26,693 bases of DNA from Deinococcota bacterium. GTDB lineage: Bacteria; Deinococcota; Deinococci; Deinococcales; JAAFIG01. The position numbers were made by a program, and so were the translations under genes. The notes under the pieces were generated by a model. That model searched no databases. It saw only the letters and a list, made by a program, of their open reading frames with translations, and had not been told where the DNA came from. Location of the stretch: contig JBEGTV010000001.1 in assembly GCA_041179225.1 (NCBI GenBank), positions 1 through 26,693 of the forward strand, given 5' to 3'. Shown in pieces: positions 10,528 through 25,356 of this stretch; position 1 is the first letter of the stretch, and every line of letters starts with the position of its first letter.

Positions 10528-10668
10528 ATGAAAAAACAAGAATACCAAATCCCGTGTCTCGAGACGTATCAATGGCAAGTATTAACAGGTGTTTCATTGC
10601 CAATTGGAACAAGTGGCTTACCAGAGAACCTTTTCAATGACTTCCTTGAATTCGAGGAACAACCATGA
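10528..10668 (+). CDS. 46-aa peptide with a YxxPxL...LTG leader-like motif (absent from the ORF track)
   Basis: MKKQEYQIPCLETYQWQVLTGVSLPIGTSGLPENLFNDFLEFEEQP*. GAGG lies upstream, the stop overlaps the lipoprotein ATG (ATGA), and a paralog lies at 22868-22999. Confidence 0.78.
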   Translation: MKKQEYQIPCLETYQWQVLTGVSLPIGTSGLPENLFNDFLEFEEQP

Positions 10669-13600
10669 AAAAAGTTATTACTCTAGCATTGTTGCCAGTG
10701 GCACTGATGGCATGTTTACAAGCCCCAAGCCCAGAAGTCAAACCAGTTTCCCCAGACCAGACATTCAAACCCACACTTTTAGGCAGTGTGACTTTGCAGA
10801 TAGATAGTAATTTGGGAATCCAAGGGTCAAAATTTATTCCAAATCGTCGGCTCTCGAGCCAAACCCTTAGCCCAGTCACCGAAAGCAATTTGGTGTTCAC
10901 TCGAGAAACACTGGTCAACATTGACCGTCCGAGCAGTGGCGACAGGTACTTGAACGCGCCGTTTAAGGTCACAAACAATAACTCGAGCAACTTGCAGAAT
11001 TTAACGCTGGTGGCGTATCACAAAAACGGCAATGTTGGCGGCAGTGCCTTTAAGGACATTCAAACCTTTGGTGGCACACTCAACCCAAATGTCAATACAC
11101 TGCTGCCAATTCACACCATGACAGGTTCTGGAACTGTTGTGGTGGACAATACCAAAGCTGACCTACAAATTTTTACTCGAGGTGAAATTGCTACACTGAC
11201 CACTGCCTCAGCCGCACCAAATGGCACGTTACTCAATCCAGGCGAAGGAATTTTGCATTATGGTTTTATTGCCCGTAAAGGCAGCAGTGGAACGTACCGC
11301 ACGATTGCAGGAACAGCTTGTGATCCAGTTGCAAACGTAGGTTGTAACGAAGGCACGATAAACCTTGCGTTGCGAGTCCCACAAACTACCGACCCAAGCG
11401 GAGTAAACGCCCCAGCTTACCGGTACAGCATGACTTTCTTGGTGTTTACCGACAGCGCTGCTCGAGTCACCGAAAGCATCGAAGAACAAGGCACAACCAA
11501 CGCGGCGACTCGAGCTACTGCCCTTGGAGGTTCACCGCAAGTCGTGGCAATGTGCGGCACGAGCCGAAGTTCAAGCAACACCACGTACATCACAGGGGTT
11601 CGTACTGTTGGGGTTGGGGTCAACACCGAAACAGCTTTGATGGGTGGGAAATTTGTACTCACCAGTACCACAACGCCGAATTTCACGGTTAATGGCAATA
11701 TCTCTAAGAATTTTAATACTGCCAGTGGCTTACTCAGCACAGGACTTTCGGCGTTGGGTGGCGCAACCCTGACAACTGCTCTTGTGGGAACACCAACCAA
11801 CTCGAGTAACATAACGGTCAATACAGATGGAAGTCTAAGCATTAACCCAGCCGCGAATTTACGCACCACCGATAGTTTTAATTATTCGATTGCTGATGGA
11901 ACATGCACTTGGACACGTCCGGCTGGTGTAACCATCCAAAACGCCGTGACTTGGTTTGTCAAAAACAATGTGGCAACCACAGGCGATGGGCGCTTCTCGA
12001 GTCCATTCAAAACACTGGTTGAGGCACAAACGGCTTCGCTTGCCAATGACACAATTTATGTGTACAACGGCGATAACAGCACCACAGGGCAGAATGCTGG
12101 AATTACCTTAAAGGCGGGTCAAAAACTGATTGGGCAAGGTGTGGCGCTAACCGTTGGTGGGGATGCCATTGAAGTAGCTGGAACAAACGCCAAAGTGGGC
12201 AATGGGGCTGGAACGGCTATAATGTTAAGCACCAATAACACCTTGAATGGACTTGATGTCAACACTACAGGAATTGGGATTAGCGGCTCGAGTTTTGGAA
12301 CGCTGACAGTCAGTGCTGTGAATGTGAATGTCAGTAACAATACTGCTCTGAATTTAGCAACGGGTACGCTGGCTGCGACCTTTGGTACAATCACTTCTGC
12401 CAATGGGGTAAATGGCGTATCGTTTGATGGTTGTGATGGTACAATCACAGCCACTAATGGCACTTTAAGCTCAAGCAGTGGTCCAGCTAATCATGTTGTC
12501 AACATCGTCAATACCAGTGGAACGAACAGCCTCAACTTTACTTATGGCGGTACAATCAACAAAACCACGGATGGCGCGGCTGTGAATATCCTTGGCTTAA
12601 GTGGTACAGGAGCAGCAACCTTCAATGGTAACGTGACTGGCAATAATGTTTCCGATGGAGTAATGATCAATACCACTTCGCGTCCTGTCACCTTTAGTAC
12701 CCTTTACCTTGGTACAAGCGCGGCACGCTTTACAACGACTCCCGTTGCCCTTGTTGGGAATACTGGTGCAGTTGACCTTGGTGTGTTCACCAGCTATACC
12801 AACGCTGTTCCAGCACTGGAGATCAATTACAGCATTGCCAGCCCGGGGTTGGTCACAACAGATGCGGGTAGTTTATTAGATGCCACTGGTGCAGCTACTG
12901 CATTACTTGTTTCGCATTCAACCAGCCAGTCTTTGAACTTGAATTTTGCAACAATTTCAGCCACTGGTGCTGGAACTCATGGTGTCAACCTCAATCGCAG
13001 TAGTGGTAGCCTGACTGTGACAGGCTCAACCGCCTTTGGTGCAAAGACCGTGGCGGGTATTCAAATCACCAACTCGAGTCTTGCCACGAGTTTTAAGAAA
13101 GTGGATGTGAATGGTGCAGCCGATGGCGTGAAACTGAGCGCCAATACTGGCAGTTTTAGCATCACTGGCGATGGAAATTGGGTTAATGTTCATACCAACA
13201 GCGCAGGCGGAACATTCACTAATCTGACCAACAACGCTTTTGACCTGACCAGTGTTCAGAATGTTCAATTGACAGACATCACCATCAATGGAACAGGCAG
13301 CCACGGTGTGATTGGTTCGGGTGTGAGCGGCACGACCATCTTCTCGAATGTTGATATGACCAATATCGGTAACGCAGATAATGAACACGTCTTTAACTTC
13401 CAAGAGGGTGCAGTTTCTGGCGCACAAGTGAGTGGCTCGTTCGAGGTGAATAATAGCGAGATTAGTAACTTCACCGACAATGGTGTTTACCTCGAGAACT
13501 TTACTGGGACCTTAGATTTTCGCTGGACGAACAATAACCTTCGGAACAACATCACGACTACAGCCTGTGGTGGTGGAAACTGTAATGGTAACGGCATTTT

Positions 13601-14477
13601 GTTGCGGGCTGACGGCACATCGCGCATCAATGCCTTGATCTTAAACGCCGTCTTTGAGGACATTGATGGTATCGGGGTTACTGCCAACCCAGAAGGCAAT
13701 AGCGGCGCACGAATGGACATTAACATTGCTCAAAGCAATTTCACGGCTGAACCTTATGGTGGGACGGGTAACACCAACAATGGCGAAACCGCCATCAGCC
13801 TGCGGAACCAACAGGGCAACAGCATCATGAACTTTCGTTTGTTCTCCAACGATATTAATGATTATACTGGTGAACTAGCGTTGGGCGTGGTTGAGATTGA
13901 AGGCGGCGATTTCACCACCACCAATGGTATCATTGACACGCTTTACATCTATCATGCTCACGCAGGTAATGGACTCCAAATTTTTGCGGATGGCGCAAAT
14001 ACTGGTGGTAGTGGCACAACGAACTTCACCATGAATGTCTCGATGAATGACATCAATTTCCTTGCGGCAACACCCATTTTGGGCAGCTCTATTTTGCTCA
14101 GCAACAATGGGGCGATTTCCGGAAGCATAGTACAGGGCAACTACATTATAACCAATAGTAGATTATTAGCAAATGCAACTGGCACGAGTCGGCGTACACT
14201 AACAATCAATGCAAGGGATTTTAACGATGTCTGTGCGCGAGTTCAAACCAATATCATAGCAGCAGGCACATCTGGTACTCAACCATCAATCAATTTGTCT
14301 TATAACGGTTCAGGTGCAGTTCGTTTACAAGGAATGAGCGGGTCAGGAGACACGAACGCAATAGCTTATCTCGGTGCAAACAATACACTATCTGTTGCTG
14401 CCATTTCTGGTCCGAACAACAATGTAACCAGCGCGACCTGTACCACCCCAACCATCCCTGGAGTATTCCCGTTCTAA
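10665..14477 (+). CDS. 1270-aa lipoprotein: shared N-terminal domain, Ig/cadherin-like domain, right-handed beta-helix-like passenger
   Basis: Lipobox LMA|C. Residues ~1-316 align with the 22996 protein. NTDGSLSINPAANLRTTDSFNYSIADG is Ig-like. WFVKNNVATTGDGRFSSPFKTLVEAQTASLANDTIYV is a typical beta-helix start, followed by N/G/T/S-rich coils. Confidence 0.88.
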   Translation: MKKVITLALLPVALMACLQAPSPEVKPVSPDQTFKPTLLGSVTLQIDSNLGIQGSKFIPNRRLSSQTLSPVTESNLVFTRETLVNIDRPSSGDRYLNAPFKVTNNNSSNLQNLTLVAYHKNGNVGGSAFKDIQTFGGTLNPNVNTLLPIHTMTGSGTVVVDNTKADLQIFTRGEIATLTTASAAPNGTLLNPGEGILHYGFIARKGSSGTYRTIAGTACDPVANVGCNEGTINLALRVPQTTDPSGVNAPAYRYSMTFLVFTDSAARVTESIEEQGTTNAATRATALGGSPQVVAMCGTSRSSSNTTYITGVRTVGVGVNTETALMGGKFVLTSTTTPNFTVNGNISKNFNTASGLLSTGLSALGGATLTTALVGTPTNSSNITVNTDGSLSINPAANLRTTDSFNYSIADGTCTWTRPAGVTIQNAVTWFVKNNVATTGDGRFSSPFKTLVEAQTASLANDTIYVYNGDNSTTGQNAGITLKAGQKLIGQGVALTVGGDAIEVAGTNAKVGNGAGTAIMLSTNNTLNGLDVNTTGIGISGSSFGTLTVSAVNVNVSNNTALNLATGTLAATFGTITSANGVNGVSFDGCDGTITATNGTLSSSSGPANHVVNIVNTSGTNSLNFTYGGTINKTTDGAAVNILGLSGTGAATFNGNVTGNNVSDGVMINTTSRPVTFSTLYLGTSAARFTTTPVALVGNTGAVDLGVFTSYTNAVPALEINYSIASPGLVTTDAGSLLDATGAATALLVSHSTSQSLNLNFATISATGAGTHGVNLNRSSGSLTVTGSTAFGAKTVAGIQITNSSLATSFKKVDVNGAADGVKLSANTGSFSITGDGNWVNVHTNSAGGTFTNLTNNAFDLTSVQNVQLTDITINGTGSHGVIGSGVSGTTIFSNVDMTNIGNADNEHVFNFQEGAVSGAQVSGSFEVNNSEISNFTDNGVYLENFTGTLDFRWTNNNLRNNITTTACGGGNCNGNGILLRADGTSRINALILNAVFEDIDGIGVTANPEGNSGARMDINIAQSNFTAEPYGGTGNTNNGETAISLRNQQGNSIMNFRLFSNDINDYTGELALGVVEIEGGDFTTTNGIIDTLYIYHAHAGNGLQIFADGANTGGSGTTNFTMNVSMNDINFLAATPILGSSILLSNNGAISGSIVQGNYIITNSRLLANATGTSRRTLTINARDFNDVCARVQTNIIAAGTSGTQPSINLSYNGSGAVRLQGMSGSGDTNAIAYLGANNTLSVAAISGPNNNVTSATCTTPTIPGVFPF

Positions 14478-14519
14478 TAGCTACTAGCTACTGGCAAGAT
14501 TCACAATCATAGTTTCGGC

Positions 14520-14643
14520 AATAGTCTGGAATGATTTTGATTTTTTTGGTCATTAACGCATTTATTTTCCGTAGGGCGAATTTTGTATTCGCCCTATAGA
14601 ACGACATAAATTGGAATTCCCTAAAGAAATATTCCAGACTATT
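14520..14643. mobile_element. 124-bp MITE/REP-like element, copy A
   Basis: Perfect 13-bp terminal inverted repeats AATAGTCTGGAAT / ATTCCAGACTATT. A central GTAG-initiated hairpin TAGGGCGAAT-tttgt-ATTCGCCCTA lies at 14572-14596. A homolog lies at 22632-22756. Confidence 0.65.
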
Positions 14644-14678
14644 CACTATTCAAAACCTATAAAGAGTAAACTAGAATC

Positions 14679-15071
14679 ATGGAAATTAAGTCTTGGCAAC
14701 CTTTAAGTCAATTGGCTAAAATTCGTGAGCGGGTGGCGCAAATCTCTCAGCGTTCGGGTTGGTCGCCTGCCGCAGATTGGTTTGAATCCGACGATGCGCT
14801 GCTGCTGGTCTTGGACGCTCCGGGCTTAGATATGTCGTTGCTCGAGTTAAACCATGATGGTAATTTACTCACGGTTACGGGGACAAGAGAAGACCAAGGT
14901 TACGGGCAGCGTTTACATGGCGAGCGCCCACTGGGTTCTTTTTCACGGGTTCTCGAGATTCCAGTGCTTGTCGAACCAGATTCTGGGGTGGCGCAGTACC
15001 GTGCGGGTCAACTCGAGATTCGGTTTGGTAAATTGGGGCGTACCATCACCATAGATGCTGGTCGGGGCTAA
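14679..15071 (+). CDS. Hsp20/alpha-crystallin family small heat-shock protein
   Basis: PAADWFESDDALLLVLDAPG, LTVTGTR, ERPLGSFSRVLEIP and AQYRAGQLEI; TAAACT-N6-ATG. Confidence 0.88.
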   Translation: MEIKSWQPLSQLAKIRERVAQISQRSGWSPAADWFESDDALLLVLDAPGLDMSLLELNHDGNLLTVTGTREDQGYGQRLHGERPLGSFSRVLEIPVLVEPDSGVAQYRAGQLEIRFGKLGRTITIDAGRG

Positions 15072-15072
15072 A

Positions 15073-15816
15073 ATGCGTTTTTTGTTGGTGCTGCTTTTAT
15101 TTGTAGGCGTTGCCACTGCCCAAGTGACTGATTTGGCTGTGTTGCGGTCACGGATCGAACAAGGAGATTTTTTAAGTGCTATTCCTAAACTCGAGGCGCA
15201 TGTGAAAGTGCGTCCTTCGGATGCCGAAGCCTATTTTTTGTTGTCTCGAGCGCTTTATTTGGCGGGTGGAGCGGTCTATTTATCTCGGGCCGAGGATGCG
15301 ATCAATCAGTGTTTTCGGCTCTCGAACTTGCCGCGTCCAGAGTCGTATTGGCAACGTGGGCTTATTCGGGCGGGTACAAACCGTTTTAAGGATGCGCTGC
15401 TTGATTTACGGGTGGCTTCGAGCAGCAGCACACGGGCTAATCCTAAAGAAGTTTACCGGTATGCAATGGATTGGGGGGCAGTTGCTTGGCGCTCAGGGGA
15501 TTTAACTCAAGCACTCGAGGCGTACCGTCGGGCAGTGCGTTTAGACCCTATTCAGGCATTGCCGTGGCTGCATCAGGGGACGTTGTTGCTGTCTTTAGAA
15601 GATGCCAAAGAAGCCGAGGCTGCCTTAAGCAAAGCCATTGGTTTAATGCAAGCCCAAAAACACCCAGCCTTAGCTGAAGCCTTTTATTGGCGTGGAGTGG
15701 CTTTAGAACGTCAAAATAAACTCGAGGCTGCCAAAGAAAATTATCGTCGGGCGTTAGAACAAAATCCCAGTCATGTGGCGGCAAAAATGGCACTTGAGGC
15801 ACTGACAAGCAAGTGA
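15073..15816 (+). CDS. Secreted tetratricopeptide repeat protein
   Basis: Signal peptide MRFLLVLLLFVGVATA|Q; TPR-like units such as ALEAYRRAVRLDP, AFYWRG and AKENYRRALEQNP. Confidence 0.85.
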   Translation: MRFLLVLLLFVGVATAQVTDLAVLRSRIEQGDFLSAIPKLEAHVKVRPSDAEAYFLLSRALYLAGGAVYLSRAEDAINQCFRLSNLPRPESYWQRGLIRAGTNRFKDALLDLRVASSSSTRANPKEVYRYAMDWGAVAWRSGDLTQALEAYRRAVRLDPIQALPWLHQGTLLLSLEDAKEAEAALSKAIGLMQAQKHPALAEAFYWRGVALERQNKLEAAKENYRRALEQNPSHVAAKMALEALTSK

Positions 15817-15836
15817 TAAAACTTGTATAATCTTAC

Positions 15837-17324
15837 ATGTTTGGTGAATATAATCCCACGGGTTTTTTCGATGAGATGTTCGATGGTGTAAAACCTCGAG
15901 ACCATTACGCCCCGATTCTGGATCGGATGAATGCAATCACCAAATCAGAATTCGAGCGACGACGAGCAGCTTCGGATTTAACTTTTCGCAATCAAGGCAT
16001 TACCTTTACAGTGTATGGGGATTCCCAAGGTACGGAACGCACTTTTCCGTTTGATCCTGTGCCTCGGATTATTCCAGCCACTGAATGGGCGCATTTGGAA
16101 CGTGGTTTAACGCAGCGTGTGCTTGCCTTAAATGCTTTTCTGCGCGATATTTACGGCGAACAAGCCATTCTGCGTGATAATGTCATGCCAAGGGAATTGG
16201 TTTTATCTTGTAGTAATTTTCGGCGCGAGGTTTTTGGGCATAAACTGCCGCTTGGGGTTTTTACCCATATTGTTGGTTCGGATTTAGTCCGTAACGAACG
16301 CGGCGAATACCTTGTTCTCGAGGATAATTTGCGTACTCCAAGCGGGGTTTCGTATGTGCTGGCAAACCGCACTGCCCTAACTCGTACCTTGCCGGGTTTA
16401 TTTGAAGGCATGAATGTCCGCCCTGTGCAGCACTACACCACGGTGCTGCTCGAGGTGCTGCGTTCCTTGTCGCAACGCGATAACCCTGTGGTGGTGGTGC
16501 TAACACCGGGCATGTACAACTCGGCGTATTTTGAACATGCTTTTTTAGCCCAGCAAATGGGGGTGGAACTGGTTGAAGGCAGGGATTTATTTGTAGCCGA
16601 TGGCAGGGTCTGGATGCGAACCACGACTGGACGCGCTCAAGTGGATGTGATTTATCGCCGTGTGGATGATGATTTCCTTGACCCAGTGGCTTTTAGGTCA
16701 GACAGTGCGCTTGGTGTACCGGGCTTACTCGAGGTTTATAAGGCTGGTCGGGTGGCGCTGGCGAACGCAGTTGGGGCTGGAGTTGCCGATGACAAAGCGG
16801 TTTATGCTTACGTGCCGAAAATGATTGAGTATTATTTGGGTGAAAAACCGATTTTGGGTAATGTTCCGACCATGCTCGGTTGGGATAAAGCCGACTTAGA
16901 CGTGATGTTTTCTAAGCCATCTGAATTGGTCTTTAAGGCAGTCGGAGAAGCGGGTGGTTATGGAATGCTGGTCGGACCTGCCAGTACCAATGCCGAAATC
17001 AAAGACTATTTAGAAGATGTCAAAGCCAACCCCAGAAATTACATTGCCCAACCAGTTATTCCACTCTCGAGACATCCAACTTATTACCCAGACAGTGGCA
17101 AAATGGAAGCCTGTCATGTGGATTTACGTCCGTACATTCTGTGTGGCGAAAAAGTCACGATTATCCCCGGGGGTTTAACCAGAGTCGCCCTTAAACGTGG
17201 CAGTTTGGTGGTGAATTCTAGTCAGGGCGGCGGCAGCAAAGACACTTGGGTTCTCGAGGATGACGGGCAGACACAAAGTTCACAGGTTCAAAATTCACAG
17301 TCGCAAAGCCAAAGGAGCGCATAA
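15837..17324 (+). CDS. Circularly permuted type 2 ATP-grasp protein (DUF404/DUF407-type)
   Basis: [89 protein letters not shown] and a Q/S-rich tail. Confidence 0.92.
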
Positions 17325-18241
17325 TGTTATCTCGAGTTGCTGAAAATCTTTTTTGGATAGCGCGGTACATTGAACGCGCTGAGAGTTCATCGCGCTTACT
17401 AGACGTGAATTATTATGCAACTTTAGAAGGTGGCAATCTGGTGCAAGAACAGTGGTTGCCGCTCCTTAAAATCACGGGTGGCGAAAAAGCCTTTAGAGAA
17501 CAACACCCCAAAGCCGATTCTAAAAGTGTGCCATTCTGGTTGGCATTTGATTTATATAACCCGTCCAGCATTTGCAGTACCTTGACCCAAGCCCGCGAAA
17601 ACGCCCGCAGCTTACGCGACCGAATCTCGAGTGAAATGTGGGAGTGTATCAACAAGGCATACCACGAACTTTGTTTTGACACTGATTCAGTCATTGCCAA
17701 CGATGCACTGCATGAATACTGCAATCGGGTGCGCGAAACCAGTCATTTGTTTTTTGGAATTGCCTTGTCTACATTGCTGCGCGACGAAGGCTGGCAGTTC
17801 TTGCGTTTAGGACAACTGATTGAACGTGCCGATAATTTACTACGAATCCTGCAAGTGCGTTACCAAAACTCCGAAACCAGTGTGGTTGCCGATGCACTGG
17901 AAAATCACCGTTGGATGGCGCTCCTAAAAACTGTTTCGGCATACGAAGCCTACCGCAAGCGTTACCACACCAGATTAGAACCACAAAACATTGCTGAGTT
18001 TCTGCTCTTAGATTCAACTTTTCCACGCAGTGTGATTTACGCGGTCGAAGGGGTGCGTGACAGCCTTAAAAAATTACCTAATGCCAGTAAAATCCAACAC
18101 GAAACCAATTGGTTAGCGGCACGGCTCGAGCATAGCCAAGTCAGTGATATGCTCGACCAAGACGCACTCGAGAAGATACTCGAAGATGTTAATGCGATAG
18201 GGGCAATGGTACAAAGCACTTATTTTCATTTGAACAGCTAA
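17324..18241 (+). CDS. Alpha-E domain-containing protein (DUF403)
   Basis: [46 protein letters not shown] and FPRSV; 1-nt overlap with the ATP-grasp stop, which is the canonical pairing. Confidence 0.92.
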   Translation: MLSRVAENLFWIARYIERAESSSRLLDVNYYATLEGGNLVQEQWLPLLKITGGEKAFREQHPKADSKSVPFWLAFDLYNPSSICSTLTQARENARSLRDRISSEMWECINKAYHELCFDTDSVIANDALHEYCNRVRETSHLFFGIALSTLLRDEGWQFLRLGQLIERADNLLRILQVRYQNSETSVVADALENHRWMALLKTVSAYEAYRKRYHTRLEPQNIAEFLLLDSTFPRSVIYAVEGVRDSLKKLPNASKIQHETNWLAARLEHSQVSDMLDQDALEKILEDVNAIGAMVQSTYFHLNS

Positions 18242-18254
18242 AAAAGGAATCAGA

Positions 18255-18830
18255 ATGAATCCTAAAGTCAATTGGTTTTTTGAAAAAGCCTCAAAGTGGC
18301 AAGAAGAATTTAAGCACTTACGAACAATGATGCTCGAGTGCAAATTGACCGAAGAACTCAAATGGGGTGTGCCTTGTTACACCTTTTCAAACAGCAACAT
18401 TGTTTTAATTCACGGCTTTAAGGATTACTGTGCGATTTTATTTCACAAAGGCGCTTTACTCACAGACCCCGAAAAGATTTTGGTTCAGCAAACCCAGAAT
18501 GTGCAGTCAGCCCGTCAGATTCGCTTTACCAGTCTGCAACAAATTATGGCGCTAGAATCCACCATAAAAGATTACCTTTTAGAAGCCATCCAAGTTGAAA
18601 AAATGGGCTTAAAGGTAGAACTCAAAAAAACATTTAATATGCCCGAAGAATTATTAACGCAATTAGAACAAAATCCTGCCTTAGAAAAAGCTTTTTCGGC
18701 GCTTACCCCCGGACGACAACGAGGCTATATTCTTTATTTTTCTGCACCTAAACAAGCCAAGACTCGAGTTTTGAGGGTGGAAAAATATATAGAGCAGATT
18801 CTCGAGGGAAGGGGATTAGATGATGAGTAA
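18255..18830 (+). CDS. YdeI family protein (DUF1801 plus YdeI/OmpD-associated domain)
   Basis: EELKWGVPCY, NIVLIHGFKDYCAILFHKGALL, ARQIRFT and AFSALTPGRQRGY; closely resembles the Bacillus YdeI family as recalled. Confidence 0.85.
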   Translation: MNPKVNWFFEKASKWQEEFKHLRTMMLECKLTEELKWGVPCYTFSNSNIVLIHGFKDYCAILFHKGALLTDPEKILVQQTQNVQSARQIRFTSLQQIMALESTIKDYLLEAIQVEKMGLKVELKKTFNMPEELLTQLEQNPALEKAFSALTPGRQRGYILYFSAPKQAKTRVLRVEKYIEQILEGRGLDDE

Positions 18831-19194
18831 ATTTAATTCGGTTGATGATTACCTAGCCTCGCTGGACACACAAAAAGCTGGTACGCTCAGGGCAATTATA
18901 GATTTTATTCTGACCCAATTCCCAGAACTTGAGTGCAAAATTTCTTGGAATGTACCGCAAATTCACTTTCAGGGCGAATACGTGTTTGGTGTTTCTGCCC
19001 TTAAAAATCATTTGGCACTTGCCCCTTGGAGTTCTCGAGTCATTGAAGATTTTAGGGTTCGGTTAGAAGATAAATACATTGTTCGCAAGAATCTTTTCCA
19101 AATTCCCGTGGATTGGGAAATAGATAAAGAATTATTAAAGGATTTAGTCCGTGCCAGATTAGCCGAACTCAAACATATTCTTAGCAAAATCTAA
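18820..19194 (+). CDS. DUF1801 domain-containing protein
   Basis: SVDDYLASL, LRAII, ECKISWNVP and DKELLKDLVRAR; overlaps the upstream stop. The start may be 18823. Confidence 0.8.
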   Translation: MMSKFNSVDDYLASLDTQKAGTLRAIIDFILTQFPELECKISWNVPQIHFQGEYVFGVSALKNHLALAPWSSRVIEDFRVRLEDKYIVRKNLFQIPVDWEIDKELLKDLVRARLAELKHILSKI

Positions 19195-19200
19195 ACTCAC

Positions 19201-20154
19201 CTAAGCGACGCGCTCAGATTCTCGAGTCGCCAGCGCTTCTAAAGCACTTTTTGCAGGGGAAGGTACTAAGCATTCAAGCGCTTGGATGGCATTTTCGGCT
19301 CGGCGGCGCATCTCGAGACGGGCTTGATCATCGGTTTTGGCAGCCAAGACCAGTTCACGCATTCGTTGCACATCGCCTCGTTGGGATGCGCGGCGCTCGA
19401 GAATATCTCGGGCTTCCTCGTTGTTGTTTTCGAGTAAGTACAGCACAGGCAGCGTGGCTTTGCCTTCGCGTAAATCGCCGCCAACGGGTTTACCTAGGGT
19501 CTGTTCGTTGGACATTAAATCGAGGATGTCATCTTGAATTTGAAAGGCTCGCCCGTACTCGAGTCCGAAGGTCTCCAAGGCGTTTTGCACACTTAAGTCG
19601 GCTTTGGCAAGCATGGCTGCGCCTTTGGTGGCAGCCGCCGCTAGAGACGCGGTTTTACCAGTGATGATACTAAAATAATTTGGAATGCTGTATGTGCCTA
19701 GGGCTGCTACTTGAAATTGCAACACCTCACCTTCGCAAATGGTGCGGGAGGTGTTGCCAATTAAACGCACAAAGTCGCCTGCATCTGAACCAAAATCGGC
19801 AAGGAGCATCATCAGGCGGCTGAGCAAGTAATCGCCACTCATCACAGAAACCACATTGCCATAATGCTTAAAGGCAGCTTCTTTGCCACGCCGCGTATCA
19901 GCATCGTCTATCAGGTCATCGTGCAGCAAGCTAGCACTGTGCAGCAGTTCGATCACGGCAGCATAATCCACTTCTCGAGGGTCGTTGGTAAAGAGGGCTT
20001 GGGCAGCCAAAAAAACCAGTTGTGGACGGGCGCGTTTACCACCCGCATCAAGCAAATCCTCACCGATTAATTCGATAAATTCCACTTCGGATTTGACCAG
20101 TTCACGCAAGCGTCGCTCGAGTGCTGCCATTTGAGGTTCCACCAGTGGGTTCAT
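19201..20154 (-). CDS. Polyprenyl diphosphate synthase (trans-prenyltransferase)
   Basis: GGKRARP, first Asp-rich motif LLHDDLIDD, RRG, GKTA, second motif FQIQDDILD and GKPVGGDLREGK; GGAG RBS 6 nt before ATG 20154. Confidence 0.93.
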   Translation of the reverse strand: MNPLVEPQMAALERRLRELVKSEVEFIELIGEDLLDAGGKRARPQLVFLAAQALFTNDPREVDYAAVIELLHSASLLHDDLIDDADTRRGKEAAFKHYGNVVSVMSGDYLLSRLMMLLADFGSDAGDFVRLIGNTSRTICEGEVLQFQVAALGTYSIPNYFSIITGKTASLAAAATKGAAMLAKADLSVQNALETFGLEYGRAFQIQDDILDLMSNEQTLGKPVGGDLREGKATLPVLYLLENNNEEARDILERRASQRGDVQRMRELVLAAKTDDQARLEMRRRAENAIQALECLVPSPAKSALEALATRESERVA

Positions 20155-20266
20155 TGCCAACTCCAAGCCGCTTAAGATGAGAAACCCTCAAGCCTTTGTG
20201 AAACTATACACGCCCCACGCGGGACGAATGCCGTTTGTTTACAGCACAATCTTTTTACACTCACTT

Positions 20267-21418
20267 TTACATACTCGTCCATTTTTGGCTCGAGCCAGCA
20301 CTCTGTACGGTGCGTTCAATAAATTTCACGCCCCTCGCGCCATCTTCAAGCGTTGGATAATCGCCTTCGAGCGGACTTAAGGCACGGTTCTCGAGTTTGG
20401 CATGAATCGCTTCGGCAGCCCCGATGTACACATTGGCAAAGGCTTCTAAAAAGGCTTCTGGATGCCCGGCTGGGATTCGCGTGGCTTTTTGGGCGGCAGC
20501 ACACAGGTAATTAGAGCCTCGAGTCAGGATTTGACGCGGAGCATCTATTGGGTTGTACTCGAGGTAATTTGGGTTTTCTTGATGCCATTCAATCCCACCT
20601 TTGGTTCCAAAAACCCGTAGACGCACATCGTTTTCGCCACCGATTTGAATTTGGCTGGCAATCAGTACGCCCTTTGCGCCACCTTTGAAACGCATCAGTA
20701 AATTGCCATCATCATCGAGTTGCCGCCCTTCAACAAAGGTCGTCAGGTCAGCGCAAATACTCTCGAGTTCTAAGCCAGTCACAGTTGCCATCAGGTTCTC
20801 GGCGTGCGAACCAATATCACCAATGCAACCAGCCGCGCCACTACGGGCTGGGTCGGTACGCCAATCGGCTTGTTTTTGCCCAGATTCCTCGAGTTTCGTG
20901 GCAAGCCAACCTTGGTTGTATTCAACAATGACTTTGCGAATTTCCCCAAGTTGCCCAGAGCGCACCATTTCCCTAGCATGTTTGACCATTGGATAACCTG
21001 TGTAATTGTAGGTCACGGCAAAAACCACACCAGATTTATGGGTTGTTTCGAGTAAACTTGCGGCTTGGCTCGAGGTGTGAACCAAGGGCTTATCGCAAAT
21101 CACATGGATTCCAGCCGCCGCGAATGCCTGAGCCACAGGGAAATGCACATGGTTTGGGGTGACAATGCTGACCAAATCAATTCGCTGGTCAGCAGGCAAT
21201 GCCAATTCGGATTCAAGCATTTCTTGCCAAGTGCCGTAGTTCCTCGAGTCTGCCAAACCCAAATCTTGCCCTGACAAACGTGCTTTTTCGGGATTACTCG
21301 AGAGTGCGCCAGCCACCATTTCATACATTCCATCTAATGCCATGACTTTACGATGCACCGCGCCGATGAAGGCATCGCGTCCGCCACCGACCATTCCGTA
21401 CCTAAGTTTTCTGGGCAT
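20267..21418 (-). CDS. Gfo/Idh/MocA family oxidoreductase
   Basis: [39 protein letters not shown] and DIGSHAENL. Confidence 0.92.
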
Positions 21419-21420
21419 GA

Positions 21421-22437
21421 TTATTTCTCCTTTTCAGAAACACTGTCAAAAGCACTATCAAAGGCTCTATGACTTGGTTTGAAATCAAGTTTCTTGGTGT
21501 ACGCCGCACTTTCGGTTGCCCCATGAATCCTATCCATGCGGCTGTCCTCCCATTCGACACTTAAGGGTCCTGTGTAAGCAATGTCGTTTAAGGCAACAAT
21601 AATTTCTTCAAAGTGAATATCGCCGCGTCCGACACTACGAAAATCCCAGTAACGTCTCGAGTCACCAAAGTTGGTATGCCCACCAAACACCCCCGCTTCG
21701 CCTGTGCCATGACCCCACCAGACATCTTTCATATGGACATGGAAAATTCGTGTGGCAAACCGACGAATAAACTGCACGTAATCCACACCCTGATACCCAA
21801 GATGACTTGGATCATAATTAAATCCAAAGCGCTTATGACCTTTCAGGGCAGCAATGGCGCGTTCGGCACTGGCAGTATCAAAAGCAATTTCAGTAGGATG
21901 CACCTCGAGTGCAAAGTTAATATCATGTTCTTCAAAAACTTCAAGAATTGGTTTCCAGCGCTTGGCAAAGTCCTTAAAACCATTATCCCAATAGGCTTGA
22001 CTGGTTGGCGGGAAAGCATAAAGGCTATGCCAGATGCTTGAGCCAGTAAAACCATTGACAACTTTGACCCCAAACTTCGCGGCTGCCCTTGCCGTGTCCG
22101 CCATTTCAAGGGCAGCCCTGCCGCGCACACCTTCGGGTTGACCGTCACCCCAGACATGAGCAGGTAAAATAGACTTATGACGCTCATCAATTAGGTCACA
22201 AACCGCTTGTCCGACCAGATGCGCCGAAATAGCATGACACTCAAGACCATGTTTTTTAAGCAGCGCTCGTTTATCTTTAACATACGACTTGGATTTCAGA
22301 GCGGCTTGCACGTCAAAATGATCGCCCCAACAGGCAAGCTCAAGACCATCGTACCCCATGCTTTTTGCCAGTGGTGCAAGTTCAGAAAGTGGTAAATCTG
22401 CCCATTGACCCGTGAATAACGTCACACTTCTTGCCAT
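21421..22437 (-). CDS. Sugar phosphate isomerase/epimerase (xylose-isomerase-like TIM barrel)
   Basis: [41 protein letters not shown] and SVEWED; GGAGG RBS before ATG 22437; in an operon with the Gfo/Idh/MocA gene. Confidence 0.9.
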
Positions 22438-22548
22438 AAGAACCTCCAAAGGATAAAAGCCTTTTTGTCTGACATCGGATTTTAACTCACTTAGTTATTT
22501 GGTGCTTGTCTTGTACAATGCGATTCTCTAACCAGCCAGCGCGTGCCA

Positions 22549-22594
22549 AACGTGACCCTACGCTTATGGGTAACGTGACCCTACGCTTATGGGT
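22549..22594. repeat. 23-bp perfect tandem duplication
   Basis: AACGTGACCCTACGCTTATGGGT at 22549-22571 and 22572-22594; contains GTAG on the minus strand. Confidence 0.88.
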
Positions 22595-22631
22595 ATGGTC
22601 GAAAATGCAAATCAATCTTAAATCAGAATTC

Positions 22632-22756
22632 AATAATTCGGAAAGTTTTTGATTTTTTGCCTATGTGACGCATTCAGGGTTTTGTAAGAGCGAATCTTGT
22701 GTTCGCCCTGTAGGACGTGGTGAATCGTGTTTTCCTGAAAAATGTTCCAGACTATT
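22632..22756. mobile_element. 125-bp MITE/REP-like element, copy B (degenerate)
   Basis: About 70% identical to 14520-14643 by hand alignment, same orientation. Right TIR GTTCCAGACTATT matches 12/13; left TIR AATAATTCGGAAA matches 9/13; central hairpin at 22684-22709. Confidence 0.6.
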
Positions 22757-22867
22757 GAGAATTAGCACAACAAATCAAAAACAAATTTTCGGGATGCCTT
22801 GAGTTCATGCCCTACCTGCGACAACCAAAAGACAGCTTGTCTCTATTGTTTGCTCGAGGAGAAATAT

Positions 22868-22999
22868 ATGGTCATGCAAACACCGAAACTACCGTATCAA
22901 ACACCGAAACTCGAGCAGGAAAAAAGCCATACCGTACTCACAGGGGTCAGTCTGCCAATTGGTGGGATTCTTAGCGAAGATGAAGGAATAGGGCAATGA
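22868..22999 (+). CDS. 43-aa peptide with a YxxPxL...LTG leader-like motif
   Basis: MVMQTPKLPYQTPKLEQEKSHTVLTGVSLPIGGILSEDEGIGQ*. GAGGAG RBS, ATGA overlap with the lipoprotein, and a paralog at 10528-10668. Confidence 0.78.
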   Translation: MVMQTPKLPYQTPKLEQEKSHTVLTGVSLPIGGILSEDEGIGQ

Positions 23000-25356
23000 A
23001 GCGCTTTTTATCGAGTGCAATTGGTTTAGCAGCCTTACTAGCCGCCTGTCAAACACCCATGCCGAATCTCGAGCAAAAACCAATCGGAGTGGCGGGGCAA
23101 GTCGAATTAACTTTTGATTTACGCTCTAAAACCGCTTTTGCAAGGTACAAGAAAAGCGGTTTGATTACACAAACCGTGCAGACCAGTATTTCGTTTGGTG
23201 CTGCGCCAACCATTGGGTTTCTCGCCGATGGTAGCAATAATTATGTTTCTGCTACATTTGATGTCAATAACCTGACTGGCTCGAGCCTGACCGATTTAAC
23301 ACTGGTGGCTAAGCATCAGCAAGGAAATCATGTGGGAACAGCTGTGAAAAATGTGGTGAATTTCTCGGGCAATGCCCTTGACTTTAATGTCTTTGCTCAG
23401 AATGTCAAACCAACCCTGATACCAACGGTACTGACTCCGTTCACAGTCAATTCCAATGTGGCAGATTTGCAATTCCTGACTGAACTCGAGATGGCTGCAT
23501 TGCAAAGCCAAGCGGTCAGTGCTGGTCAGGTTATCACTGCCAATGGCGAATACTTACTGCCGTATGGTTTTATGGCACGAAGCAGCAACACTTCGAGAAC
23601 CTTAGCCACTGGCAACAGTGTAGGGAGTTTAACTGTTTCGATTAAATTACCCAGTGGTAACGAGCCAAGCAGCAATGTGACACGGTTTAGCATGACCTTT
23701 GTGGCATTTGACCAAGCTGTGATCCCTCGAGTTTCTGAAGCGCTTGAGGAACAAAGTAATTCGAGTGCTGCCACTCGAGCCACAAGTTTTGGTGTAGCTC
23801 GAGTGGCAGCCTTACGCAACAGTGCTTTATTGACCGAATCTGACGGTACAAAAGTCAATGTTTGCCAAGTTCGCACGGCTGGCACGGTGGTCGCACCGAC
23901 TGCTCGAATAGACACAACTGCGTTGCTCATAGGGAGTGGACTGAATGACCCGTGCTTTGCTGCGTCTGGGCGGCGCGTATTTGGTGGCAGTTCTTCGGAT
24001 AAAGTTGTGGCACGCCACATTGTGCCCGATGGTGGTTTTTTATTGGCTGGTGAGTTCGCTCAAACCCCGACCAACACCGATGCGATGGTACTCAAATACA
24101 AACCAGATGGTTCTTTGGACTCGAGTTTTGGTGTGGGCGGACTTGCCACAATGGATGCTGTCAATGATGATCTAATCACGGGTTTTCATCTTTTACCGAA
24201 CGGCAAAATGTACTTGGTTGGCTCGAGATTTCGGATTTACAAATTCAATGCCAACGGAACACCAGATACAACTTTTGGCACAAATGGTTTTGCCAGTACC
24301 GTCTTAAGCCAAAGCAGCACCGATGATTTTGTGATTACCAGTGCAGTTAATCCAAGTGATGATTCAATTGTTTTAGCTGGTGTGGTGGTACAAGCTGCGG
24401 GAAACGCCAGCGACATTGGATTGGCTGTTTTTACCAATACTGGAATTCTTAACAATAGTTACAATGGCTCTGGAAAATTGTTCTGGGAGTACCTGAGTGT
24501 AGCCTCAAATCCAGATACACCAATCGCTGTGTACTTTAATGCCGATGGGAGTCTCCTAGTTTTTGGCGATACGATTTCTTCCAATCGTGATTGGGTGGTC
24601 TTCAAATTAGACAACAACGGGCAATTGGATGCCATTAACTTTGGGAACGGTGGGTACTTGCTGATTGATGTTCTCGGAGCAGCCGATTTTTTAACAGTGG
24701 TTGATCGTTTATCAGATGGAAATTTCTTATTGGCAGGTACAGTGAGCGACCCAACTATAGCAAGTACAAATCGCTTAGCCGTGGTTAAAGTAACCGATGC
24801 TGGGCAATTGGATACCAGTTTTGCCAACCAAGGGCAATTTGTACAATCAGCAACAGGGTCAACCTACCGTGAAGCAGTAGCTCTACATGTCCTTGCCGAT
24901 AATCGTGTTTTGGTGGCAGGTACGGATGTTTCACTAACTCGAGGTGTACAGTTTGGATTACTTAAACTCAGTGAATTTGGTGCATTGGTGAGTTCTTTTG
25001 GGACAAGCGGCGTGGCAACTCCTGTTAATTTCTTTGCTGGTTCAGGTAACGACACGCCAACAGGCATTACTGTTTTAAGTGATGGTAGCATTGTCCTCGG
25101 AGGCATTGGCACAAAACCCGGTGCGTTCCCAGCACCAACCCAACCGCATATGGCACTGGCAAAATACACCTCGAGTGGTGTGCTGGACACAACTTTTAAT
25201 AGCACTGGCTTAAAAACCACCTTATTTGGCAATAATGGCTCGAATCAGACTGCCTTGCCGCCTGCGGTTTTTACAAATGATGCTTTGCTGCACGTTGGCT
25301 GGGCTGGGTTTACTGGACAATCAAATAATATCACGCTCTACAAAACCCTGCCATAA
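22996..25356 (+). CDS. 786-aa lipoprotein: shared N-terminal domain plus delta-60 (DUF5122-type) repeat beta-propeller
   Basis: Lipobox LAA|C. Residues ~1-296 align with the 10665 protein. About seven repeats follow, such as KYKPDGSLDSSFGVGG, KFNANGTPDTTFGTNG, KVTDAGQLDTSFANQG and KYTSSGVLDTTFNSTG. Confidence 0.9.
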   Translation: MKRFLSSAIGLAALLAACQTPMPNLEQKPIGVAGQVELTFDLRSKTAFARYKKSGLITQTVQTSISFGAAPTIGFLADGSNNYVSATFDVNNLTGSSLTDLTLVAKHQQGNHVGTAVKNVVNFSGNALDFNVFAQNVKPTLIPTVLTPFTVNSNVADLQFLTELEMAALQSQAVSAGQVITANGEYLLPYGFMARSSNTSRTLATGNSVGSLTVSIKLPSGNEPSSNVTRFSMTFVAFDQAVIPRVSEALEEQSNSSAATRATSFGVARVAALRNSALLTESDGTKVNVCQVRTAGTVVAPTARIDTTALLIGSGLNDPCFAASGRRVFGGSSSDKVVARHIVPDGGFLLAGEFAQTPTNTDAMVLKYKPDGSLDSSFGVGGLATMDAVNDDLITGFHLLPNGKMYLVGSRFRIYKFNANGTPDTTFGTNGFASTVLSQSSTDDFVITSAVNPSDDSIVLAGVVVQAAGNASDIGLAVFTNTGILNNSYNGSGKLFWEYLSVASNPDTPIAVYFNADGSLLVFGDTISSNRDWVVFKLDNNGQLDAINFGNGGYLLIDVLGAADFLTVVDRLSDGNFLLAGTVSDPTIASTNRLAVVKVTDAGQLDTSFANQGQFVQSATGSTYREAVALHVLADNRVLVAGTDVSLTRGVQFGLLKLSEFGALVSSFGTSGVATPVNFFAGSGNDTPTGITVLSDGSIVLGGIGTKPGAFPAPTQPHMALAKYTSSGVLDTTFNSTGLKTTLFGNNGSNQTALPPAVFTNDALLHVGWAGFTGQSNNITLYKTLP

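Follow-up and report, generated by a model that had tools for sequence, protein, structure and literature searches.

Two cassettes in a Deinococcales contig

The window, that is the whole stretch of DNA analysed here, comprises the 26,693 nucleotides of contig JBEGTV010000001.1 (assembly GCA_041179225.1). It belongs to a metagenome-assembled genome (MAG, labelled G000) of 2.68 Mb, which is 57% complete and represents an uncultured lineage of the Deinococcales. The MAGs of this lineage come from cold-stream samples. Two cassettes of the same build are present in the window. In each of them, the open reading frame (ORF) for a small peptide overlaps a large gene for a lipoprotein, and all of these genes are located on the + strand. 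The peptides, the N-terminal domain of the lipoproteins (N-domain) and the enzymes encoded in their vicinity in related genomes are the subject of this study.

Peptide 1 (10528-10668, 46 amino acids) matches the hidden Markov model (HMM) of the peptide family with 77 bits. A leader was delimited at residues 1-21 (nt 10528-10590), with the pattern Y6-x-x-P9-x-L11 ... T20-G21. Its Thr is found at Y+14, a spacing one residue shorter than the canonical one. The predicted core (residues 22-46, nt 10591-10665) starts with VSLPIG and ends in an acidic tail of the NDFLE type. The start codon of the gene for lipoprotein 1 (10665-14477, 1270 amino acids) overlaps the peptide stop codon as ATGA. Lipoprotein 1 consists of a signal peptide with lipobox (10665..10715; L-M-A-C at residues 14-17, Cys17), the shared N-domain of about 300 amino acids (10716..11612; HMM score 330 bits), which was modelled as a beta-sandwich in the paralog, and a passenger (11613..14477). 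The passenger shows a cadherin-like/Ig match at residues 364-416, followed by about 850 Gly/Asn/Thr-rich residues. Library scans yielded no family match for this last region; its composition, together with Beta_helix matches in a homolog, suggests a beta-helix-like structure.

Peptide 2 (22868-22999, 43 amino acids) has an ortholog called as a gene of 43 amino acids on a JGI contig (L010). Its leader (residues 1-26, nt 22868-22945) reads Y10-x-x-P13-x-L15 ... T25-G26 and thus displays the canonical Y(-17)/T(-2) arrangement, and the predicted core (residues 27-43, nt 22946-22996) again consists of VSLPIG and an acidic tail. Lipoprotein 2 (22996-25356, 786 amino acids), the start of which overlaps the stop of peptide 2 as ATGA, has a signal peptide with the lipobox L-A-A-C (22996..23049; residues 15-18, Cys18), an N-domain scoring 394 bits (23050..23883) and a passenger (23884..25356) predicted to be a beta-propeller of delta-60 repeats (DUF5122). 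The passenger matches TIGR02608 with 185.3 bits in seven stretches (cut-off 76.5) and PF17164 with 74.7 bits (cut-off 27). The lipobox Cys is invariant in the family alignment of 15 homologs, and assignment to the bacterial lipoproteins was made by inspection rather than by a dedicated predictor.

Comparison of the two cassettes revealed that the peptides are paralogous (16 identities in 26 positions, E 6e-7). They have in common Y-Q-x-P-x-L-E, a spacer of five to six residues and VLTGVSLPIG; in the codons for the latter, six out of ten differ between the two genes, each synonymously. The N-termini of the lipoproteins are also paralogous, with 29% identity (E 5e-26) and real similarity over the first ~300 residues. 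Past the N-domain the lipoproteins diverge, and the passengers are unrelated. ORF coordinates and alignments thereby confirmed the architecture that had been described in the original prediction, which was based on the letters of the window: two cassettes with ATGA overlaps, paralogous peptides, paralogous N-domains and unrelated passengers.

Several further sequence elements were noted at the cassettes. The Leu-Glu of the peptide motif is encoded by CTCGAG in both window peptides, a hexamer occurring 25,862 times in the 2.68 Mb of the MAG (9.7 per kb). Within the gene for peptide 2, a direct repeat of 14 bases, CAAACACCGAAACT, is present at 22877-22911 and duplicates the QTPKL element, the first copy (PKLPY) preceding the true YQTPKL motif. 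Upstream of cassette 2, between genes (22549-22595), the 23 bases AACGTGACCCTACGCTTATGGGT are found twice as a perfect tandem direct repeat. The sequence ATGTGACG, seen by eye ahead of both window peptides, was rejected as a common upstream motif; no 7- or 8-mer is present in four or more of seven upstream regions of the MAG peptide copies. Between the cassettes (15837-18241), genes for a circularly permuted CP_ATPgrasp_2 protein and an Alpha-E protein are located, with Hsp20, TPR and DUF1801 genes in the flanks. No link of the ATP-grasp/Alpha-E pair to the cassettes was found, and the pair is absent from the clusters of the Deinococcus type described below.

Occurrence of the pair and conservation of its parts

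In the MAG, seven copies of the peptide were detected, on contigs C1 (twice, the window cassettes), C156, C240, C73, C97 and C294, along with at least nine N-domain matches. Wherever downstream sequence is available, the next gene after the peptide is one for such a lipoprotein. Four junctions outside the window could be read; three are ATGA overlaps and the fourth, on C294, is a gap of 20 bases. In sister genomes, peptide copies number up to 16 and N-domain genes 10-26. This recurrence in the MAG and in sister genomes demonstrates that the cassette is not a chance arrangement. It also bears out the proposal that peptide and N-domain have been duplicated and retained together, the pair being present at five further places of the MAG and in the sister genomes.

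To quantify the pairing, peptide loci and N-domain loci were read in both directions. An N-domain is encoded directly downstream in 27 out of 33 peptide loci fetched, some of which duplicate the same place. Among the remaining six, two are false matches inside long ORFs, one is located 209 bases upstream of an ORF of 192 amino acids without N-domain match, and three precede lipoprotein genes too diverged for the N-domain HMM; one of these three, from D. detaillensis, matches the N-domain profile in hhalign with 86% probability. Stop and start codons overlap by four bases, mostly as ATGA, in 22 of 31 junctions. In the opposite direction, a peptide is found upstream in 21 of 29 N-domain loci, and in sister genome G130 in 14 of 18 N-domain genes listed. 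The pairing is not obligate; about one quarter of the N-domain genes are without a peptide. Three things had been named that would speak against the proposal, namely N-domains usually lacking a peptide, peptides occurring independently of these lipoproteins, and a pair already characterised, and none of them was found.

Sister genome G127 (94% complete) is a special case, with 14 N-domain genes and a single peptide. No peptide ORF is present in the six upstream regions of its N-domain genes that were read, and the genome contains neither the nucleotidyltransferase::B2 fusion introduced below nor any match to PF13471. In G127, the peptide arm of the system seems to have been lost naturally. In the MAG itself, an N-domain lipoprotein gene on C351 (L007/L009) is split over two frames and has neither a start codon nor a peptide, pointing to either a pseudogene or an assembly frameshift.

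Searches among 1.84 billion representative proteins yielded 213 small proteins, mostly of 38-103 amino acids, matching the peptide profile at E<=1e-3. The family comprises more than 200 clusters at 50% identity. Scans of the peptides against Pfam (E<=0.01) and NCBIfam (E<=1) gave no match, the source names of ten peptide clusters are 'hypothetical protein' or missing, and the peptide is not annotated by NCBI. Among the 150 matches listed, all are members of the peptide family except one protein of 382 amino acids (P0172). This protein displays four or more tandem leader-like repeats of Y-x-x-P-x-L-x-D-H-G ... T followed by a coiled-coil end, and the recognition motif may be in a different use there.

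The ratio of nonsynonymous to synonymous substitution rates (dN/dS) was between 0.17 and 0.37 in seven ortholog pairs, with values of 0.17 for peptide 1 and its ortholog in G129 and of 0.23 for peptide 2. These values indicate that the peptide is translated and that the product is under purifying selection. At the amino acid level, a motif of 25 residues is kept across families of the Deinococcales.

Lasso peptide precursors are recognised through Y(-17), P(-14), L(-12) and T(-2) relative to the cleavage site (PMC10368454). The N-terminal half of the peptides matches such leaders: counted from the predicted cut, Tyr, Pro and Leu of YxxPxL occupy -17, -14 and -12, and Thr occupies -2. The distance from Tyr to Thr was tallied in 134 family representatives; 93 have Thr at Y+15 and 39 at Y+14. 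Distant members fit the full YxxPxLx3Gx5Tx spacing. Behind the predicted cut, the consensus [V/I/L]-S-[L/F]-P-[I/V]-G precedes an acidic tail that often contains [D/N]-F-[L/M]-[E/D]. Residue 1 of the predicted core is V, I or L in 92 of the 134 representatives and Gly in 12, residue 2 is Ser in 103, and Asp or Glu at positions 7-9 occurs in six representatives and in neither window peptide. Judged by these residues, the predicted core would be unable to form a lasso ring.

For the N-domain of lipoprotein 2, AlphaFold2 predicted a beta-sandwich with two helices, at a predicted local distance difference test (pLDDT) value of 76 and a predicted template modelling score (pTM) of 0.78. With this model, the best hit of Foldseek against the PDB had an E value of 0.033 and a TM score below 0.25, and the best hit of an exhaustive VIA-align search a Z score of 5.6, under the noise level of 7-8 stated for the tool. 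Among AFDB clusters, matches were restricted to uncharacterised proteins. The mu-homology-domain was rejected as a relative, its weak rows being below noise. Across the family, the passengers behind the N-domain are of various types, among them beta-propellers, FG-GAP, cadherin-like/beta-helix, and nuclease plus LTD. The passengers are thus interchangeable, as had been anticipated from the two window cassettes.

Lasso-type enzymes encoded near the pair

In Deinococcus and other Deinococcales genomes with a single or few peptide copies, the peptide and lipoprotein genes are located 0.3-8 kb from genes for three further proteins: a PqqD-family protein (B1 type), a kinase-like protein and a fusion of an NTP_transf_5 nucleotidyltransferase with a lasso-B2-type domain. 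This arrangement was detected in G171, G169, G025, G053, G022, G084, G063, G043 and on metagenome contig L139; for G118 and G059, only the distance to B2 was read, which is 1.4-3.9 kb. In G171, the genes for fusion and peptide are divergent and 0.3 kb apart. In G169, the PqqD gene, the kinase-like gene and those for peptide and lipoprotein form an uninterrupted row, with the fusion gene 7 kb further on. In G025 (Deinococcus detaillensis) and G053, the PqqD and kinase-like genes are divergent from those for peptide, lipoprotein and fusion. In four more Deinococcus genomes and on L139, the enzyme genes are likewise neighbours of the pair.

The fusion proteins match PF13471 (B2) and PF14907 (72-92 bits). 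The His of the B2 domain and the GDVD motif of the nucleotidyltransferase are invariant, and the B2 Cys is present in nine out of ten fusions. The fusion is named 'lasso peptide biosynthesis B2 protein' by NCBI and is found under this name in D. detaillensis, D. sonorensis, D. maricopensis, D. wulumuqiensis and others; among named Deinococcus species, the peptide-lipoprotein pair was verified beside the fusion for D. detaillensis (G025). The PqqD protein encoded beside the peptide in G169 scores 56.7 bits with PF05402. Matches of the kinase-like protein to Hpr_kinase_C and PEPCK_ATP are limited to the P-loop region, and it carries a weak precomputed PF27840:ScmC label.

In one Deinococcales family (L102, corresponding to G169:C148 6072-10415; L101; L139 5903-10113), the cluster additionally contains three tandem phage-tail-collar genes (PF07484), a periplasmic-binding-protein-like gene with a Tat-like signal, a GNAT gene and a gene for a stand-alone N-domain lipoprotein of 290 amino acids; DUF6916 is present on L139 only.

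The MAG also encodes these enzymes. Its nucleotidyltransferase::B2 fusion of 439 amino acids (NF033537, 35.4 bits, cut-off 33) is located on contig C248 (L074), between the genes for a CapD-like sugar dehydratase and an MFS_3 exporter. Another contig, C369 (L073), carries a PqqD-family gene, behind which an HprK-related-like gene and two GT2 genes are located. The CapD-like and GT2 neighbours hint at a link to glycan synthesis. With the kinase-like protein of the MAG as query, an ortholog was detected in one out of five sister genomes, and the B1/kinase pair of the MAG's genus may therefore not match the Deinococcus pair exactly.

Homologs of the fusion are present in 116 of 364 Deinococcota genomes; the unpublished genome G324 enters this tally as a single row and supports no claim made here. 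They were detected in 55 of 58 genomes positive for the peptide (E<=1e-3) versus 61 of 306 negative ones and, within the genus Deinococcus, in 31 of 32 versus 22 of 79, counts that are not phylogenetically independent.

A lasso cyclase was searched with PF00733 (Asn-synthase/lasso cyclase). No match was obtained in G169 and G025, both 99% complete; in G022 and G143 there are weak partial matches, none of them near the cluster, and the sole full-length match in G171 is located ~620 kb away from it. The one full-length Asn-synthase homolog of the MAG is encoded among the genes of a polysaccharide cluster; its best score is the one for an ordinary amidotransferase. Of the features that define the lasso class, the YxxPxL leader with a penultimate Thr and the genes for B1 and B2 are thus present; a macrolactam cyclase and a core with a small residue 1 and Asp or Glu at 7-9 are missing. 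Since the cyclase and a ring-competent core were both looked for and not found, the system is not considered a lasso pathway. By its gene content, it would work like the leader-handling half of such a pathway, without the cyclase. Among the roles suggested for the peptide in the original prediction, that of a processed precursor resembling peptides that are synthesised by ribosomes and modified after translation (RiPPs) has gained strong genomic support, because the leader has lasso spacing and the pair adjoins PqqD, HprK-like and B2 fusion genes in genomes with few copies.

A predicted role for the peptide and comparison with known systems

The peptide is probably a lasso-derived precursor in a system without cyclase, genetically tied to the N-domain of surface lipoproteins. 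This reading builds on what was observed: the sequence features of the peptides, selection at the level of translation, the coupling overlap, the pairing with the N-domain, the swappable passengers, synteny and co-occurrence with B1 and B2, and the lack of a cyclase. The PqqD-type B1 protein would bind the leader, and the lasso-B2-type cysteine peptidase, fused to the NTP_transf_5 nucleotidyltransferase, would cut after T-x. The peptide might then be phosphorylated or otherwise decorated, perhaps on the conserved Ser, by the HprK/ScmC-like P-loop protein and the nucleotidyltransferase. With no cyclase in the pathway and a core predicted to be unable to close, a macrolactam ring would not arise. 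In the MAG's genus, the MFS exporter encoded beside B2 may export the product. Either the processed product or the intact peptide would act on the N-domain. Translational coupling connects the peptide to a lipoprotein in which the N-domain of ~300 amino acids is the constant genetic partner and the remainder a swappable surface payload. The ancestral state, retained in Deinococcus and other Deinococcales, would be one cluster with B1, kinase-like gene, peptide, lipoprotein and B2 fusion; in the uncultured lineage of the MAG, the cassette has been amplified to about 10-16 copies, with the enzyme genes elsewhere in the genome.

What the product does is proposed more tentatively. A short linear processed peptide, possibly phosphorylated or glycosylated, might serve the N-domain as its own ligand or cofactor and, for example, help to anchor, activate or mark surface proteins with interchangeable payloads. 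The system would then be a new RiPP class serving the cell's own surface proteins and not an antibiotic. We regard this as possible, at clearly lower confidence than the descent of the peptide from lasso precursors.

A number of observations weigh against the lasso-derived precursor and have to be set beside it. N-domain genes without a peptide and the dependence among the genomes counted were mentioned above, and three peptide-positive genomes (G127, G133 and G005) are without detectable B2. In the MAG's genus the enzyme genes adjoin no cassette, and the PqqD and kinase-like proteins of the MAG are distant from those of the Deinococcus clusters, the kinase-like proteins being 30% identical over 184 amino acids and the PqqD proteins showing no significant match. 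The kinase-like protein matches the HprK-related family TIGR04352 weakly, with 31.8 bits at a cut-off of 200, and both cleavage and modification of the peptide are predicted from homology. The peptide has no export signal and the lipoprotein is exported, so that contact between the two would need the predicted export step. Finally, a RiPP core would not usually be conserved in its first six residues, as the predicted core is, and the VSLPIG-type region could be a binding element instead of the product.

The strongest alternative, although it is unlikely, is the following: the peptide would remain unprocessed and serve as a stoichiometric partner of the N-domain, as a ligand or as a chaperone or holdase before export, with coupling ensuring 1:1 production and the lasso-type enzymes having a secondary or regulatory role. 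The ATGA coupling in most copies, the constancy of peptide and N-domain as the two invariable parts of the cassette and the conservation of six residues past the predicted cut are in line with such a partner. A fusion of the peptide, via the signal peptide, to the N-domain was also modelled with AlphaFold2. Residues 1-20 of the peptide reached pLDDT values of 71-76, and residues 22-69, which cover the peptide's remainder and the signal peptide, remained below 50. Packing of the leader on the N-domain is weakly suggested at most; the alignment was unpaired, the mean pLDDT of the five models spread from 54 to 74, and no contacts were returned for inspection. A stoichiometric partner is also at odds with the lack of a peptide at about one quarter of the N-domain genes and at nearly all those of G127, and it leaves the lasso-leader spacing and the tight association with PqqD and B2 unexplained.

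A role of the small ORF chiefly in translation or regulation, as a leader that opens or couples the lipoprotein start while its peptide is functionless, is quite improbable. The four-base overlaps would fit, as would a purine-rich stretch that the codons of the acidic tail hold just upstream of the lipoprotein start. Against this stand the conservation of the 25-residue motif across Deinococcales families, with synonymous changes and low dN/dS, the proximity to and co-occurrence with a peptide-recognition protein and a leader peptidase, and the missing common DNA motif upstream of the seven MAG copies. That the peptides are ordinary lasso precursors with a cyclase encoded elsewhere or missed, as the leader motif, the split B1/B2 genes and the NCBI name of the fusion might suggest, is hardly credible in view of the PF00733 searches, the amidotransferase-like homolog of the MAG and cores that begin mostly with V, I or L and rarely have Asp or Glu at 7-9.

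Literature searches revealed no published description of the pairing between the peptide and the N-domain lipoprotein, and lasso-derived machinery without a cyclase, coupled to lipoproteins in the Deinococcales, is apparently undescribed. To our knowledge, enzymes for lasso-type leader recognition and cleavage are known only from pathways for lasso-peptide antibiotics. Here, they occur without the ring-forming enzyme, and their predicted substrate is hard-wired by a stop/start overlap to surface lipoproteins. If this link is functional, machinery for modification of ribosomal peptides would have been recruited for cell-surface biology, implying new chemistry at the class level. The catalogue of proteins gains an unannotated peptide family of more than 200 clusters and a beta-sandwich domain of 300 amino acids without an assigned fold family. 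The system is directly testable, since the fusion is annotated in several named Deinococcus species, and it stands out by two features: the cassette has been amplified, and G127 is a case of apparent natural loss.

Among known systems without a lasso cyclase, SynChlorMet-type cassettes combine, according to TIGRFAM descriptions, PqqD and ScmC, an HprK-like protein, with radical SAM/SPASM maturases. By these descriptions they share with the Deinococcales clusters a PqqD homolog, a P-loop protein that is putatively HprK-like in the Deinococcales, and the lack of a lasso cyclase; they differ in their radical SAM/SPASM maturases, of which the Deinococcales clusters have none. We know of no description of a coupling to lipoproteins for these cassettes.

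Further known systems are lasso clusters with phosphorylated or phosphoglycosylated products, such as those for paeninodin and pseudomycoidin. In the bsf cluster of Bradymonas sediminis, BsfK phosphorylates Ser3 of the core (PMC10368454). The set of B1, B2, HPr-kinase-like protein and NTP_transf_5-type nucleotidyltransferase is found in these three clusters and, with a putative HPr-kinase-like protein, in the Deinococcales, as is a conserved Ser near the core start. The Deinococcales clusters differ in that nucleotidyltransferase and B2 form one fusion protein, the kinase-like protein matches HprK-related models weakly, cyclase and ABC exporter are lacking, and a lipoprotein gene belongs to the set.

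Split B1/B2 lasso biosynthesis in general resembles the Deinococcales system in the YxxPxL motif at -17 to -12 with Thr at -2, in a discrete PqqD-family protein, in a B2-type domain with Cys and His, and in a precursor gene of 40-70 codons. The Deinococcales system differs in having no cyclase and in a core that starts with V/I/L-Ser, is without Asp or Glu at 7-9 and is conserved in its first six residues. It differs further in that the precursor gene is coupled to a large lipoprotein gene and occurs in up to 16 dispersed copies per genome.

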